From contig CP178758.1 of the NCBI GenBank assembly GCA_047651235.1, positions 2,760,001 to 2,792,000 of the forward strand: DNA of 32,000 nt. Direction: 5' to 3'. The DNA is from Candidatus Electrothrix yaqonensis. GTDB taxonomy: Bacteria > Desulfobacterota > Desulfobulbia > Desulfobulbales > Desulfobulbaceae. Within the stretch, counting starts at the first letter, position 1, and each line of letters opens with the position of its first letter. The translations under genes were made by a program, and so were the position numbers. The notes beneath the pieces were generated by a model. The model saw only the letters and a list, made by a program, of their open reading frames with translations, made no database searches and was not told the origin of the DNA. Positions 3,362-21,144 of this stretch are shown one piece after another.

Positions 3362-3805
3362 ATGAACAGGGCAGGGCTGCCGCATATAGACATGCCGCAG
3401 TCTCTGCAGTCCGGCTTCACCCTGCTTGAGGTCATGATTGCGGTGGCGGTCATTGCCATGTCCCTCGTCGCTCTGCTCGGCTCGCAGTCACAGAGTATTT
3501 CCATTGCCTCGATATCCCGTTTTGAGACAACCGCTTCTATGCTGGCGCGGCAGAAACTGGCTGAACTGCAGATTGAAGATTTTGAAGAACTGAGCAACGG
3601 TTCCGGGGCATTTGAGGATGACTTTGCCGACTACTCCTGGCAGACCGAGGTGACCGAACTGACCGAGGACGACACCGGCATTGAGGGATCAGACGGTCTG
3701 CTGAAGCTGATTGAGCTGCAGGTGAGCCGGGCGGATGACGAAAATATGGTCTTTACGGTGCGCTCCCTGGTTATGGCGAATGTTGCATCGGCTGAGGAAA
3801 AATGA
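3362..3805 (+). CDS. gspI: Type II secretion minor pseudopilin, GspI-like
   Basis: SG|FTLLEVMIAVAVIAMSL prepilin motif, small mature domain, SD-like GAGG upstream of ATG 3362. Position between the H-like and J-like genes. Confidence 0.7.
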   Translation: MNRAGLPHIDMPQSLQSGFTLLEVMIAVAVIAMSLVALLGSQSQSISIASISRFETTASMLARQKLAELQIEDFEELSNGSGAFEDDFADYSWQTEVTELTEDDTGIEGSDGLLKLIELQVSRADDENMVFTVRSLVMANVASAEEK

Positions 3806-14743: not shown

Positions 14744-15790
14744 ATGAAAAGAAGCTCGAATCCCAGCGCAGTCGGCGTTGCCATGAGCGGCGGAGTCGAT
14801 TCTACAGCAGCAGCGGCTCTGCTGCTTGAACAGGGATTTTCCGTGCATGGCTTTTTTATGGTGCTGCCTCTTCCGGGAGTTGAGGAGCAGATCCGCAGAG
14901 TGCAGCATATTGCAGACCGTCTGCACATCCCGCTTCACCTGGTGGAGCTGGAAAAGGAGTTCAGGCAGAGAGTGATTGCGTATTTTATTGCCGCATATCA
15001 GCAGGGACTGACCCCCAATCCCTGTGTGGTGTGCAACCGGCAGATCAAATTCGGCCTGCTGCTGAAAAACATGACGGCTGCCGGAATGGACAGAATCTCC
15101 ACCGGACATTATGCTGCTGTCTGCAGAGAACAGGGGCAGCCGGTTCTCCGTCGGGGAGCTGATCCGACAAAAGACCAGTCGTATTTTCTCTGCCGCCTCT
15201 CAGGTGAACAACTTGAACGGATTTTTTTTCCGTTAGGCGACCGGCATAAACAGGATGTTTTTGCTCAGATGCAGTCGATGGGGTTTACCCATTTTCAGGG
15301 CGGAGAAAGCCAGGATGTCTGTTTTTTGGCAGAATCTGATCTGGCCTCCTTTCTTGCGGAACAGGGGCTGGAGAACAGCATGGGCGAGATTGCAGCAGAG
15401 GAGGGCAGGGTGCTCGGCCGTCATCAGGGAATCTGGAAGTATACTGTGGGGCAGCGCCGGGGTCTGGGCATTCCTGATGCAACCCCTTGGTATGTGCTCA
15501 GGCTGGATGCGGCAAAGAACCGGGTGATTGTCGGCAAAAATGAGGAGCTGTTCCGTCAGGAGGTAGTACTGACCGATGTGCAATGGCAGATTGCCCCGTT
15601 CTCACTGCCCTGGCAGGGCCGGGTGCAGCTCCGTTCACGCCATAAGGCTGCCGAAGCCGAGGTGTCGTCTGCGGAAAACAATCAGTGGAAAGTACGGTTC
15701 AGCGAACCGCAGCGGGCTGTAACACCGGGACAATTCGCTGTCTTCTACCTGGATGATCTGGTGGTTGGTTCGGGGGTAATACAGGCATGA
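14744..15790 (+). CDS. mnmA: tRNA 2-thiouridine(34) synthase MnmA
   Basis: PP-loop AMSGGVDSTAAA, NPCVVCNRQIKF catalytic-Cys motif, DQSYFL. The ORF opens at GTG 14729; ATG 14744 is preferred. Confidence 0.9.
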   Translation: MKRSSNPSAVGVAMSGGVDSTAAAALLLEQGFSVHGFFMVLPLPGVEEQIRRVQHIADRLHIPLHLVELEKEFRQRVIAYFIAAYQQGLTPNPCVVCNRQIKFGLLLKNMTAAGMDRISTGHYAAVCREQGQPVLRRGADPTKDQSYFLCRLSGEQLERIFFPLGDRHKQDVFAQMQSMGFTHFQGGESQDVCFLAESDLASFLAEQGLENSMGEIAAEEGRVLGRHQGIWKYTVGQRRGLGIPDATPWYVLRLDAAKNRVIVGKNEELFRQEVVLTDVQWQIAPFSLPWQGRVQLRSRHKAAEAEVSSAENNQWKVRFSEPQRAVTPGQFAVFYLDDLVVGSGVIQA

Positions 15791-15942
15791 CGAGACAGTT
15801 GTTGCTCACCCTTTTTAAAGGATAACGGTTCGTTTTCTCCGTATAACCTGCAAGCCGTCCGCTGAGCCCCGTCGCTGCGCGGTTTGAAAACGGGGTGTGA
15901 TACGAGTATGTATACTTTTCGTCTTTTCTGGGTGGATTTCTG

Positions 15943-15973
15943 TTTACTTCTTTTATTCAGCGTGCTTATAAAT
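15943..15973 (+). promoter_or_regulatory. Weak sigma70-like promoter candidate for the AT-rich islet (TTTACT-18 nt-TATAAA)
   Basis: TTTACT at 15943-15948 and TATAAAT at 15967-15973, about 50 nt upstream of ORF 16023. Sequence match only, in AT-rich DNA where such matches are common. Confidence 0.25.
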
Positions 15974-16022
15974 AATTCCTTCAGGAGAAGGGGGATTTTC
16001 CATACTTTTACAGCACAGTAAC

Positions 16023-16856
16023 ATGTATTTTGATTTCAACGAGTTGACAAAATTTACTTTAGGGAGTGATGGGAGAACAGTTCAATGTGTTGCGCAGTTC
16101 CTGAAACCTGTTCATATTGTTATGATGTCGATTCTTCATCATTATACTGATTGTTCTGCAACTTTTCTGTATCATGCTGATTATGCAAAGGTTATGAGGT
16201 TTGATGACCCTTTGGAGATCGATACTGTCGATGGCAGCAATCATTCGAAGGCTATAAAATTAAAAAATAAATTCGATAATGATAAGCAAGTCAAAAAAAT
16301 AATGACCATCCTTGAGGGGAATAATTATCTTGATAATGAAACAAATAGCATTTTAGAGCTTGTAATATCTGAAGTATTTCAAAATTTTTATGCGCATGCT
16401 GATACCGATAAACCTCCGATATGTTGTGTTCAGGACTGGTCTACATCGGATTTTATGGAAATTTCAATTGCTGATAACGGGATAGGAATTGGTAATGCGC
16501 TGGGAGCTGCTTTAAAAAATTATTCCGACAACAGTAATCCATGCAGGATAGCTTGTGACCTTGGTGTGAGTTCGTGCTTATATGGAAAGGGTAAGCTGGG
16601 AACCTCACATAGTGGTTATGGTTTGTATTACACGAAAAGATTTATTGAAGAAAACAAAGGGATTTTATTCTTGTTCTCCGGCAACACTTGCTATATAAAT
16701 AAAGATGGGGTAGAGAATGATAGGACTCTTCCATATTCTTGGAAAGGAACCGTTATTAGATTGATAATCAACAAGAAATACACTCTCCCCTCAAAATATT
16801 TCTTCGAGAAAATCGGTAAAGAAATAGATGGAGATGATTATGAAGAATTCTTTTAA
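16023..16856 (+). CDS. GHKL (Bergerat-fold) ATPase / putative Ser-kinase-like protein with an unrecognised ~105-aa N-terminal region
   Basis: 277-aa ORF in AT-rich DNA. N-box-like ELVISEVFQNFYAHA, G1 box ISIADNGIGIGNALG, G2 box SHSGYGLYYTKRFIEE. No TM, no DHp/His-box helix, no transducer domain. No clear SD before ATG 16023. Confidence 0.6.
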   Translation: MYFDFNELTKFTLGSDGRTVQCVAQFLKPVHIVMMSILHHYTDCSATFLYHADYAKVMRFDDPLEIDTVDGSNHSKAIKLKNKFDNDKQVKKIMTILEGNNYLDNETNSILELVISEVFQNFYAHADTDKPPICCVQDWSTSDFMEISIADNGIGIGNALGAALKNYSDNSNPCRIACDLGVSSCLYGKGKLGTSHSGYGLYYTKRFIEENKGILFLFSGNTCYINKDGVENDRTLPYSWKGTVIRLIINKKYTLPSKYFFEKIGKEIDGDDYEEFF

Positions 16857-17139
16857 GCTAAGCGAGTTGTCCGAGAATACATTGGTTGGGCGTGATATCG
16901 GCATGAAAACACGGCATAAGATAAAAGATTTGCTGAAAGATTACTCAAATCTCACCATAGATATGGAAGATAAGAGTGATATTTCATTGTCTTTTTTGGA
17001 CGAGGCTATAGTTTCGCTTGTACTTGAGTATGGCAAGGCGCGTTTTTCCAACCAGATAAAGCTGAAAAATGTACACTGTAATATTAGGCATATGATGAAT
17101 TTTATTTTGAACGATAAGCAAAAGAGGCTTGCTGTGTGA
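16840..17139 (+). CDS. STAS-like small protein (DUF4325-type)
   Basis: About 99 aa from ATG 16840, with GGAG 8-11 nt upstream inside the preceding gene; the ORF opens at 16828. Overlaps the GHKL gene by 17 nt. The core VGRDIGMKTRHKIKDLL...LTIDMEDKSDISLSFLDEAIVSLVLEYG fits my memory of the DUF4325 pattern (regulated segment, then DF-x-gV-x-isSSFlDE). Confidence 0.55.
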   Translation: MKNSFKLSELSENTLVGRDIGMKTRHKIKDLLKDYSNLTIDMEDKSDISLSFLDEAIVSLVLEYGKARFSNQIKLKNVHCNIRHMMNFILNDKQKRLAV

Positions 17140-17185
17140 CGATTGAATTTGAATGCCCCAATTTTTTTGAGGCACTATTTTTCTC

Positions 17186-17219
17186 ACCGGGTACGTGCTT
17201 GGCGCGTTACCCGGTTTTT
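17186..17219 (+). terminator. Rho-independent terminator closing the AT-rich islet
   Basis: ACCGGGTA (17186-17193) pairs with TACCCGGT (17208-17215). With one bulge the stem extends by 5 more pairs around a TTG loop, and is followed by TTTT(A). Confidence 0.6.
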
Positions 17220-17251
17220 AATACAGAAATAAGAGCGATACCGCTCCTGCA

Positions 17252-20052: not shown

Positions 20053-20487
20053 TTATTTCTTTCTTTTCCCCCTGTTGCCGAATGATTTCCGCAGATTCGG
20101 ATGAATACCGCGTTCTTTGCTGGCCTTTGACCGCTCTTCGGAAAGAGCTTTTGCACAAAGGGACTGAGTACTGCTGAATCCGTATTTTTTCCGGTACTCT
20201 TTTGAGGTCATGCTGTGAGCTTTGACCAGATGTTTGGTGAGCATTTTAAATGACTGACCGCATTCCAGGCAGACGATTCTGTTTTTCTGGATGGATCTTT
20301 TCGGATCCATTGCCGGTTTTTCCTCTTTTTCCTCGATATTAATGCCTGCCAGCTCGGCCTCCTGCAAATCCTTCAGCGCCTGATAGGTATCATTAAGCGC
20401 ACCTTTAATTTCATCGGTTGTCATATTGGAACCGCTGATTTGCGACTGAATAATTTCAGCGGTCATCTCAACTAATGTTTTGCTCAT
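20053..20487 (-). CDS. MucR/Ros family zinc-finger transcriptional regulator
   Basis: 144 aa. CLECGQSFKMLTKHLVKAH (C-x2-C...H-x4-H) followed by SKEYRKKYGF is characteristic of Ros/MucR. Confidence 0.85.
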   Translation of the reverse strand: MSKTLVEMTAEIIQSQISGSNMTTDEIKGALNDTYQALKDLQEAELAGINIEEKEEKPAMDPKRSIQKNRIVCLECGQSFKMLTKHLVKAHSMTSKEYRKKYGFSSTQSLCAKALSEERSKASKERGIHPNLRKSFGNRGKRKK

Positions 20488-20664
20488 GTTATACTCCTTA
20501 AAAGCAGTAAAGATTTTTATCAGAAAAATTCTTATGTATATATCAAAACTGTTAGACTATATAATACAGCATATCATTATGCAAGATAATATTGAACCAT
20601 ATCGCACCGGATATTTTCTGCCTCTCGTTTTCATATCCCGCCTACCTGTTTCATTTTTCCACAG

Positions 20665-20693
20665 TTGACAGGCAGCCGGAGGAGGATTATTTT
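20665..20693 (+). promoter_or_regulatory. Sigma70-like promoter candidate upstream of the FmdB-family gene (TTGACA-17 nt-TATTTT)
   Basis: TTGACA at 20665-20670, a 17-nt spacer, then TATTTT at 20688-20693, in the AT-rich divergent region shared with the MucR-family gene. Sequence match only. Confidence 0.35.
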
Positions 20694-20796
20694 ATGTATC
20701 TTGGAAGGACAGTACAGTGTCCATACGGCGTTCCGCCGTTCTCTTTATTCCAATATTCAATATTTCAATGTGATATTTATATGTTGAGGTGAAAAA

Positions 20797-21144
20797 ATGC
20801 CTGTTTATGAGTACGAATGTCCGACATGCGAAAAAGTGTTTGAAGTGCAGCAGAAAATCAGTGACCAGCCGTTGACGGCATGTTCCCTGTGCGGCGGAGA
20901 GGTCAGAAAACTGGTCTCAAGAAGTGCTTTTCATCTGAAAGGCGGAGGATGGTATGCGGACGGATATGCTTCCGGTGCGCAGGAAGAAAGTAACGAAAAA
21001 AATAACGGAGAAAACAGCGGGACCACTCCGACGGGTAAAAAGGATACGACAAATGACACTGCAAAAGATACCGCAAAAACAGCGTCTTCTTCATGCGGAG
21101 GCGGCAACGGAAAAGCATGTGCAGGATGTCCGGCATCTGCCTGA
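20797..21144 (+). CDS. FmdB-family (CxxC_CxxC_SSSS) zinc-ribbon protein
   Basis: MPVYEYECPTCEKVFEV...CSLCGGEVRKLVS is the canonical N-terminal zinc ribbon. Low-complexity Thr/Lys/Asp tail. SD GAGGTG before the ATG. Confidence 0.8.
   Translation: MPVYEYECPTCEKVFEVQQKISDQPLTACSLCGGEVRKLVSRSAFHLKGGGWYADGYASGAQEESNEKNNGENSGTTPTGKKDTTNDTAKDTAKTASSSCGGGNGKACAGCPASA

Follow-up and report, generated by a model that had tools for sequence, protein, structure and literature searches.

The window analysed here, a stretch of 32,000 nucleotides (nt) from contig CP178758.1 of the cable bacterium Candidatus Electrothrix sp. YB6, contains at 15900–17230 a sharply bounded, horizontally acquired AT-rich islet that holds two overlapping open reading frames (ORFs). 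The first, ORF1, encodes a protein (K) in which a trimmed STAS-like domain precedes a GHKL ATPase domain, and the second, ORF2, a protein (S) that amounts to a bare STAS domain. Pairs of this kind, hereafter K-S-only, are a third, effector-less architecture of the CapK/VapK–CapS/VapS family, new as far as the searchable literature shows; they are not described in the paper on that family (PMC13373217), and no later work was found. We believe it likely, with a probability of roughly 60%, that the islet is a horizontally transferred, effector-less phospho-switch, triggered by DNA damage or infection, whose output acts in trans. The two genes and the parts of their products that bear on this proposal are as follows.

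16023–16856, plus strand: ORF1, encoding K, a VapK/CapK-like STAS + GHKL predicted serine kinase of 277 amino acids (aa)
16023–16334, plus strand: trimmed STAS-like domain of ORF1, residues 1 to ~104, placed by the N-terminal profile A4 and by fused relatives
16335–16772, plus strand: Bergerat-fold (GHKL) domain of ORF1, residues ~105–250, placed by invariant columns and Foldseek
16824–16853, plus strand: acidic-aromatic C-terminal tail of ORF1 (...GDDYEEFF), partly within the overlap with ORF2
16840–17139, plus strand: ORF2, encoding S, a VapS/CapS-like bare STAS domain (DUF4325) of 99 aa, with a 17-nt overlap with ORF1
16984–16992, plus strand: predicted phospho-acceptor codons S49-L50-S51 of ORF2, at the N-terminus of modelled helix 50–64

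CapK, which has the order HTH-STAS-GHKL (HTH, helix-turn-helix), is switched on by single-stranded DNA (ssDNA) and phosphorylates CapS, a STAS domain joined to a winged HTH (wHTH), at S54 (Chambers et al., EMBO J 2026, PMC13373217). Phosphorylation at S54 breaks the CapS dimer, upon which the adjacent immune operon is de-repressed; capKS is found upstream of immune operons such as CBASS, Bub and Thoeris (PMC13373217; PDB 9Z71–9Z73). VapK (STAS-GHKL), VapS (STAS with a C-terminal helix) and VapC (a PIN toxin) make up a toxin–antitoxin-like defence (PMC13373217; PDB 9Z7O) in which helix 94–116 of VapS occludes the VapC active site, VapS S48E fails to neutralise VapC, and protection against phage Bas42 is lost in F54A, S48A and D28A mutants. 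An aromatic residue, F54 of VapK or W68 of CapK, was proposed to stack on the activating ssDNA, and CapK N218A strongly lowers CapS phosphorylation (PMC13373217).

Profile, BLASTP and Pfam comparisons lead us to conclude that ORF1 is VapK-like and ORF2 VapS-like; the VapK, CapK and CapS sequences were taken from the supplementary files of PMC13373217 and that of VapS from the PDB alignment. BLASTP aligns ORF1 with VapK over 140 aa at 24% identity (E 1e-8), and hhalign pairs the ORF1 family with VapK at a probability of 96.6% (E 5.6e-10). In hmmsearch, with E-values set to a nominal database size of one million (-Z), VapK scores 48 bits (E 5.6e-11) and CapK 17.6 bits (E 0.11) against the close-family profile; against the wider-family profile VapK reaches 124 bits (E 4e-34, residues 39–285) and CapK 80 bits (E 7e-21). 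On the side of S, the VapS fragment is itself a DUF4325 domain by Pfam (E 6e-18, 65 bits), and VapS (9Z7O) is the only near-significant PDB match of the ORF2-family profile, over 74 colinear residues. The hhalign match of the ORF2 family to CapS is weak (probability 3%, E 0.014) and colinear, with FKLSELSEN/VKLLELTEN and VGRD/LGRE as common motifs. An earlier note, written from the DNA letters without database searches, had regarded the pair as impossible to place in any named system; that view has to be given up in favour of membership in the CapK/CapS, VapK/VapS/VapC family.

ORF1 (locus ACL93V_12995, labelled 'hypothetical protein' by NCBI) scores below the Pfam gathering thresholds for GHKL ATPases (for HATPase_c, 18.3 bits against 26.4). 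The prediction of a divergent GHKL domain is nevertheless confirmed, because its N, G1 and G2 boxes are invariant and its AlphaFold model (pLDDT, the predicted local distance difference test, 84; pTM, the predicted template modelling score, 0.86) finds Bergerat folds with Foldseek. The boxes comprise E117/N121/H125 (the N box, of the NxxxHA type of SpoIIAB and RsbW), D151xGxG (G1) and G198xG200L (G2, in H196sGyGL), with the ATP lid at 156–200; N121 aligns with N218 of CapK and N160 of VapK (hmmalign). Among the PDB matches of the model are TopoVI-B, Hsp90, HK853 and SpoIIAB (1l0o, TM-score 0.63 on target), and the searches of PDB and BFVD returned generic GHKL matches only. In the wider family, 103 of 124 members match HATPase_c at E <= 0.001. 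The earlier description of ORF1 as a GHKL protein that lacks both the DHp helix of histidine kinases and a transducer domain is upheld; it also lacks an N-terminal HTH. PDB sequence searches with single ORF1 and ORF2 queries gave nothing useful, PADLOC returned weak DrmA matches only for the pair, and NCBIfam nothing meaningful.

The N-terminal ~105 residues of ORF1 had been thought unrecognisable. A profile of this region in the wider family (A4) finds SpoIIAA as its top PDB match (1th8_B, E 0.0017), followed by the STAS domain of prestin, TM1442 and RsfB, and relatives with a longer or fused N-terminus match Pfam STAS_2 over the columns of ORF1 residues 7–60. We therefore conclude that the N-terminus is a trimmed STAS domain, in which only 25 residues precede the F-L-K-P motif. 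The nearly invariant P29 occupies the position of Ser58, the phospho-serine of SpoIIAA, so that the ORF1 STAS domain cannot be phosphorylated there. F26 (16098–16100) is placed on VapK F54 by hmmalign, and all of alignment A1 has F or Y at this position. The hhalign comparison of this domain with the ORF2 family detected no similarity, which indicates that the two STAS-like domains of the pair are not recent duplicates.

Two further features of ORF1 deserve mention. C134, C135, C174 and C178 (16422–16427 and 16542–16556; motifs PPICCVQDW and NPCRIAC) are invariant in the close family, and C135, C174 and C178 align with C174, C217 and C222 of VapK; a core strand holds one and the ATP lid two, and a redox or metal role is possible. 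The acidic tail (GDDYEEFF), which is conserved in alignment A1 (..DYDEFF in the close family) and, as ..DDDDFDF, in the Ralstonia-phage-type subfamily A7, resembles the C-terminal tip of the single-stranded-DNA-binding protein SSB; that in an ssDNA-sensing kinase it might mimic DNA and so autoinhibit, or provide a docking motif, is speculation.

ORF2, labelled 'STAS-like domain-containing protein' by NCBI, could start at 16828 or at 16840, and 16840 was chosen on the strength of the NCBI annotation and the family alignment. It matches PF14213 (DUF4325) with 37.2 bits (E = 2.3e-9), above the gathering score of 23, as had been proposed from its core motif. AlphaFold models it (pLDDT 89) as a small domain of alternating beta and alpha elements, with a helix at 50–64. 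S49 and S51, at the start of this helix in the motif ISLSF and followed by F52, D54 and E55, are invariant, and in the model their placement is the geometry of the SpoIIAA phospho-serine. The candidate acceptors, suggested earlier to be the serines of SLSF, are S49 and S51 of ISLSF, of which S51 is the one that aligns with S54 of CapS: hhalign places S51-F52 on S54-F55, and S48 of VapS aligns between S49 and S51. ORF2 stops about seven residues beyond the STAS core and has neither the C-terminal extension of VapS nor a wHTH; its residue 92 corresponds to VapS residue ~90, after which ORF2 ends at 99 and VapS at 116.

The pair is an obligate, autonomous and mobile two-gene unit. An ORF2 homologue lies directly 3' of ORF1 in every locus with enough DNA to reach past it (loci and proteins from the comparison set are numbered with the prefixes L and P). 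The 17-nt overlap, which had suggested translational coupling, is identical in Desulfobulbaceae (Electrothrix-type), Sulfurimonas, Arcobacteraceae and Izemoplasmatales loci, and is 14 nt in the divergent L037 and L039. Catalytic boxes, acceptor serines and overlap are kept across these four bacterial lineages at 42–73% identity, and natural (Rosetta-stone) fusions join the same parts as GHKL-DUF4325, GHKL-GHKL-DUF4325 and STAS_2-GHKL. All-versus-all BLASTP of the flanking ORFs within 4 kb in 12 independent loci revealed no common third gene; no sigma factor or PP2C phosphatase is conserved beside the pair in these 12 loci, in agreement with what had been noted for the window, and none has a PIN gene adjoining the pair or a wHTH on S. 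At L001 a PIN_3 gene lies ~3 kb away on the other strand, unlinked. G+C content (GC) of the cassette is below that of its flanks in all 13 loci measured, by 1–16 points. An impression that S is more conserved than K was dropped, the identities within a locus being similar. One variant, P0002, is a 326-aa in-frame deletion-fusion found in two separate metagenome samples (L009 8001–8981 and L010 52–1032); it joins ORF1-like residues ~1–250 to ORF2-like residues ~24–99, the tail of K and the N-terminal part of S having been lost.

An exhaustive search with an ORF1-family profile retrieved 3,592 clusters (50% identity) at E <= 0.001 and 725 at E <= 1e-10; some of the weaker matches are probably GHKL proteins without a relation to the family. 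Compared with the published 443 capK and 289 vapKSC loci (PMC13373217), these numbers suggest that the family may be considerably larger than described. Proteins of the wider family are mostly 280–315 aa long; the cluster names of distant representatives were uninformative, and a third protein search with a wide alignment returned mostly the close family again.

DNA homology with L007 begins at ~15870 and with L009 at ~15896 (TGTGATAC), 125–150 nt 5' of ORF1, and homology between loci stops just past the T-run of a terminator behind ORF2. The transferable unit therefore spans ~15870–17225, which matches the limits given in the earlier note. The unit and its non-coding elements are these.

15870–17225, plus strand: transferable cassette, defined by DNA-level conservation in loci with unrelated flanks and coincident with the lowest-GC stretch
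15896–15903, plus strand: conserved upstream block TGTGATAC, identical in the window, L007 and L009
15935–15976, plus strand: predicted promoter block, near-invariant in four loci that share no flanks (the window, L007, L009 and L008)
17186–17219, plus strand: intrinsic terminator, stem ACCGGGTACGTGC / GCGCGTTACCCGGT, then TTTTT

The promoter block contains a putative −35 element (TTTACT, 15943–15948) and −10 element (TATAAA, 15967–15972) separated by 18 nt, and its conservation suggests a promoter role; the consensus scanner did not report it. The terminator has a predicted folding free energy of −32.9 kcal/mol (z = −3.8, with no shuffled sequence folding equally well) and is kept in L007 and L009. 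The earlier proposal of a self-standing inserted cassette that brings its own promoter and terminator is upheld, both signals being conserved together with the genes. The upstream block TGTGATAC, ~120 nt 5' of ORF1 and ahead of the promoter block, is kept in three loci with unrelated flanks and does not match the usual consensus forms of the LexA box. A terminator-like hairpin, TTCCTTCAGGAGAAGGGG, occupies 15976–15993 in the predicted 5' untranslated region of ORF1 and is not conserved in L007, L009 or L008; the ATG of ORF1 has no Shine–Dalgarno sequence at normal spacing.

In the window, GC measured over 200-nt sections falls from 0.55–0.58 (15300–15900) to 0.31–0.42 (15900–17200) and returns to 0.51–0.59 beyond. 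The 0.362 of 15900–17230 is the minimum among all 1331-nt stretches of the window and lies 4.96 standard deviations below (z = −4.96) the mean of 21 non-overlapping stretches outside it (0.508, sd 0.029). GC at third codon positions (GC3) is 0.33 in ORF1 and 0.46 in ORF2, as compared with 0.58–0.64 in the mnmA, S1 and T2SS-E genes; the abrupt change of composition noted earlier is therefore real. Pfam agrees with the convergent flanks proposed earlier, with T2SS-E and mnmA genes upstream on the plus strand and an S1-domain gene, LolA and a ROS/MucR regulator downstream on the minus strand; these five genes are housekeeping or regulatory, and a precomputed family listing for a duplicate assembly places glutamate racemase near the islet as well. 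ORF2 and the convergent S1 gene are separated by 110 nt, within which the terminator lies.

Rfam models, including tRNA-like ones, have no match at the islet, repeats flanking it do not exceed short chance matches, and no recombinase family was found among the five flanking genes tested by Pfam, the remainder of the 32-kb window being unscanned; this accords with the earlier statement that integrase, tRNA and direct repeats are missing. Acquisition through an integron attC site, a tRNA or other Rfam element, or flanking repeats is unsupported by the scans. No cassette-free mnmA/S1 junction was found, an exact-match look-up with mnmA having led only to a second assembly with the same arrangement. 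A second, shorter AT-rich stretch at 20300–20800 (GC 0.30–0.37) is a divergent intergenic region between the gene of the ROS/MucR-family regulator (20053–20487, minus strand) and a second gene (20797–21144, plus strand) whose small product contains a CxxC...CxxC motif, and looks like promoter DNA rather than an insertion.

Relatives of the cassette occur in mobile and conflict-associated loci as well as in housekeeping settings (the window, L007 and L039). At L042 (1–9477) the cassette lies directly 3' of a restriction–modification-like cluster (N6_N4_Mtase, SMC_N, DUF2130 and ResIII+RE_endonuc) and is followed by a phage integrase; a comparable place downstream of restriction–modification systems is reported for about 20% of capKS loci (PMC13373217). 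At L040 it adjoins an IS66 transposase on a Rep3/ParA plasmid-like contig, at L037 it lies between a KilA-N gene and a Fic gene, at L001 a TIR-TPR gene and the PIN gene are nearby, and L009 is a prophage-like region with S24/CI repressors, a NERD gene and YoeB/Phd. More distantly related pairs are phage-borne. In prophages of Streptococcus agalactiae and S. dysgalactiae the lysin gene is directly followed by genes for a 298-aa GHKL protein and an overlapping 99-aa DUF4325 protein. The K gene of a Ralstonia P2-like prophage comes after the integrase, and in IMG/VR a DUF4325 gene overlaps the 3' end of K in all four loci of this Ralstonia-type subfamily, with no PIN gene downstream in any of the four and a CI/S24 repressor gene immediately next to the pair in one. 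In none of these settings do the homologues form part of a sigma-factor operon. The close family was not found in IMG/VR, and scans that rely on short exact patterns show it to be rare in GTDB species genomes (three loci) and JGI contigs (four loci); tblastn matched neither ORF to plasmids, and among phages matched ORF1 to the distant Ralstonia prophage only and ORF2 to none.

Several individual copies stand out. A near-identical pair is present in prophages of group B and C/G streptococci (Javan39, Javan132, Javan140, LYGO9 and phiGBSVK; L023–L036), that of phiGBSVK-E1 lying at 3551–4740 of L019; these copies are labelled 'ATPase-like' or 'hypothetical', and would offer a tractable experimental system. 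At L046 (3303–5162) the pair is directly beside an HTH + Peptidase_S24 (CI/S24 repressor) gene, and at L009 (5923–8981) it is ~1.4 kb from an S24 gene; in phage lambda, rexAB holds the corresponding position near the CI repressor. This recurrent proximity in prophages hints at expression in lysogens or at a tie to induction. In Francisella phage KIRK (Fhv_0045–Fhv_0047; PMC7924643) the stretch between the CI repressor and the integrase encodes a hypothetical protein of 293 aa, which may or may not be a homologue of K, and then a DUF4325 protein of 112 aa. Distant GHKL relatives of ~340 aa are found on Phaeobacter plasmid pP129_f (L021, 2747–4591) and Acinetobacter baumannii plasmid p2OC074 (L022, 3875–4906), with no DUF4325 domain detected in either; one of the two lies behind a gene whose weak match to HEPN/RES N-terminal domain 1 stays below threshold, and L022 adjoins BrnT/BrnA.

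In the mechanism that we favour, K would combine a non-phosphorylatable STAS-like sensor domain with a SpoIIAB-type GHKL serine-kinase domain, and S would be its STAS substrate. A signal of damage or infection would switch K on, by analogy with CapK most likely ssDNA bound in the groove between the STAS and GHKL domains, where F26 may stack on it as proposed for VapK F54. Activated K would then phosphorylate S at S51 (or S49), and unphosphorylated S, or K freed from S, would hold or release a partner encoded elsewhere, by the host or by an invading phage. The third gene that is missing from the loci compared, together with the missing DNA-binding or toxin-blocking extension of S, implies that any output must act in trans.

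Several observations weigh against this proposal. The best GHKL score of ORF1 (HATPase_c_2, E = 1.5e-4, 22.2 bits) is below its gathering score of 27.4; the match of ORF2 to VapS is marginal (E 0.04), and Foldseek of the ORF2 model against a PDB library reaching to April 2026, in which no CapS or VapS entry was listed, gave nothing significant. K237 and K239 of CapK, the lysines proposed to contact ssDNA, are replaced by S140 and S142 in ORF1 (hmmalign), which means that the ssDNA trigger may not carry over. No phosphatase to reset the switch and no output partner for the pair have been identified, and in the window neither defence genes nor mobile elements adjoin the cassette.

It is unlikely, though not implausible, that the pair is instead a classical partner switch, in which K sequesters a factor such as a sigma factor, unphosphorylated S displaces that factor, and phosphorylation of S re-arms K. 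The earlier note had pointed out the formal likeness to SpoIIAB/SpoIIAA, and the NxxxHA box, HATPase_c_2 as best Pfam match, the structural match to SpoIIAB and the STAS phospho-site geometry of S all speak for it; such a switch would also be compatible with an output in trans, as in the mechanism preferred here. On the other hand, neither a sigma factor nor PP2C nor any other gene is conserved beside the pair in the 12 loci, the place of the SpoIIAB dimerisation helix is taken in K by an N-terminal STAS domain, and in the characterised CapK and VapK systems the output is held by S, on which the kinase acts, and not by K (PMC13373217).

We consider it quite unlikely that the genes form a type II-like toxin–antitoxin system, with K as the toxin (a kinase of essential proteins or an ATP-burning enzyme) and S as a pseudosubstrate antitoxin. 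The pair is small, overlapping, mobile and AT-rich, and its neighbours elsewhere are often toxin–antitoxin or defence genes, such as YoeB/Phd (L009), PIN_3 (L001) and, next to a distant homologue, BrnTA (L022). Moreover, DUF4325 antitoxins to VapC exist (PMC13373217), and PIN.4 VapC genes have been described as 'transcriptionally coupled to DUF4325' (PMC5499597). In the characterised system, however, toxicity is attributed to VapC, not to VapK, and VapS acts through the C-terminal helix that ORF2 lacks (PMC13373217), and the L009/L010 variant without the N-terminal part of S keeps the catalytic boxes of K and persists in two samples, as one would hardly expect of a toxin without its inhibitor.

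That the cassette is a decayed vapKSC or capKS remnant, now functionless after loss of its effector, is very improbable. Characterised relatives always have an effector or output domain, the copy in the window stands alone among housekeeping genes, and P0002 is a degenerate deletion-fusion, all of which could be read as decay. This reading is contradicted by conservation: boxes and serines are invariant, overlap, promoter and terminator are kept, four lineages at 42–73% identity retain the unit, no PIN gene adjoins the pair and no wHTH is fused to S in the 12 loci, and distant K-S-only pairs recur in prophages. A CapKS-type transcriptional regulator of a neighbouring operon is scarcely credible, despite the shared family and the position of L042 directly 3' of a restriction–modification-like cluster as reported for capKS, since it is contradicted by anatomy: the 99-aa ORF2 ends with its STAS domain, which leaves it without a wHTH, an N-terminal HTH is missing from ORF1, ORF2 is followed by a conserved terminator and, in the window, by a convergent gene, and no downstream operon is conserved.

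The K-S pair has only recently been recognised as a modular DNA-damage sensor in bacterial immunity, and the forms described have an obvious output, a wHTH repressor or a PIN toxin; the cassette would represent the bare sensor, moving between lineages. Identifying a target in trans would show whether STAS phospho-switches plug into core host machinery, and what the prophage copies do for lysogens. More tentatively, it is possible, though doubtful, that K-S-only cassettes at large are widespread autonomous mobile sensors of damage or infection, with the bare STAS protein acting in trans on a conserved host or phage factor. If so, a pair next to the CI repressor of a prophage could link ssDNA sensing to immunity or induction independently of RecA, and K-S-only could be the minimal ancestral module behind CapKS, VapKSC and the N-terminal fusions of DrmA discussed below.

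Among known systems, VapKSC is like the cassette in having a K protein of similar size with STAS and GHKL domains and no HTH, with the F-L-[KR]-P motif, the catalytic Asn and three cysteines in common; its S protein belongs to DUF4325, with a conserved Ser where the same helix starts, the K gene precedes the S gene, and the loci are mobile and often defence-associated. The cassette differs in that no vapC or other PIN gene adjoins it in the 12 loci, and in that VapS has ~26 further residues, including the VapC-blocking helix (94–116), which ORF2 lacks. Identity over the GHKL domain is ~24%, and at the N-terminal end the ORF1 STAS domain is shorter by ~28 residues.

CapK/CapS likewise combines a GHKL kinase with an internal STAS domain and a STAS substrate encoded immediately 3', and shares N-terminal motifs and the S-F context of the acceptor. 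In contrast to CapK/CapS, ORF1 has no N-terminal HTH, ORF2 no wHTH and the cassette no regulated downstream operon; the ssDNA-contact lysines are absent from ORF1, and the close-family profile barely detects CapK. The activating trigger is probably the same.

SpoIIAB–SpoIIAA and RsbW–RsbV resemble the pair in that a SpoIIAB-type GHKL protein is matched with a STAS partner of one domain, whose helix 2 has a serine at its N-terminus. Unlike those systems, the cassette has neither sigma factor nor PP2C, its kinase has a STAS-like domain of its own, ORF2 belongs to DUF4325 and not to PF01740/PF13466, and the unit is a mobile cassette rather than a developmental or stress operon.

Finally, ORF1 and ORF2 match consecutive positions (138–255 and 321–392) of the DISARM protein DrmA (PADLOC model PDLC02567), and K-S fusion proteins are colinear with the model over ~40–393 at E 1e-6 to 1e-12; besides the window (16023–17139), the proteins concerned are P0203, P0145, P0090 and P0171. 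The matches of the window are weak (E 1e-4), and the module is fused to a large helicase effector in DrmA as against stand-alone genes here; the link is not mentioned in the CapK/VapK paper (PMC13373217). The colinearity of these matches suggests that some DISARM DrmA helicases carry an N-terminal STAS-GHKL-DUF4325 module.

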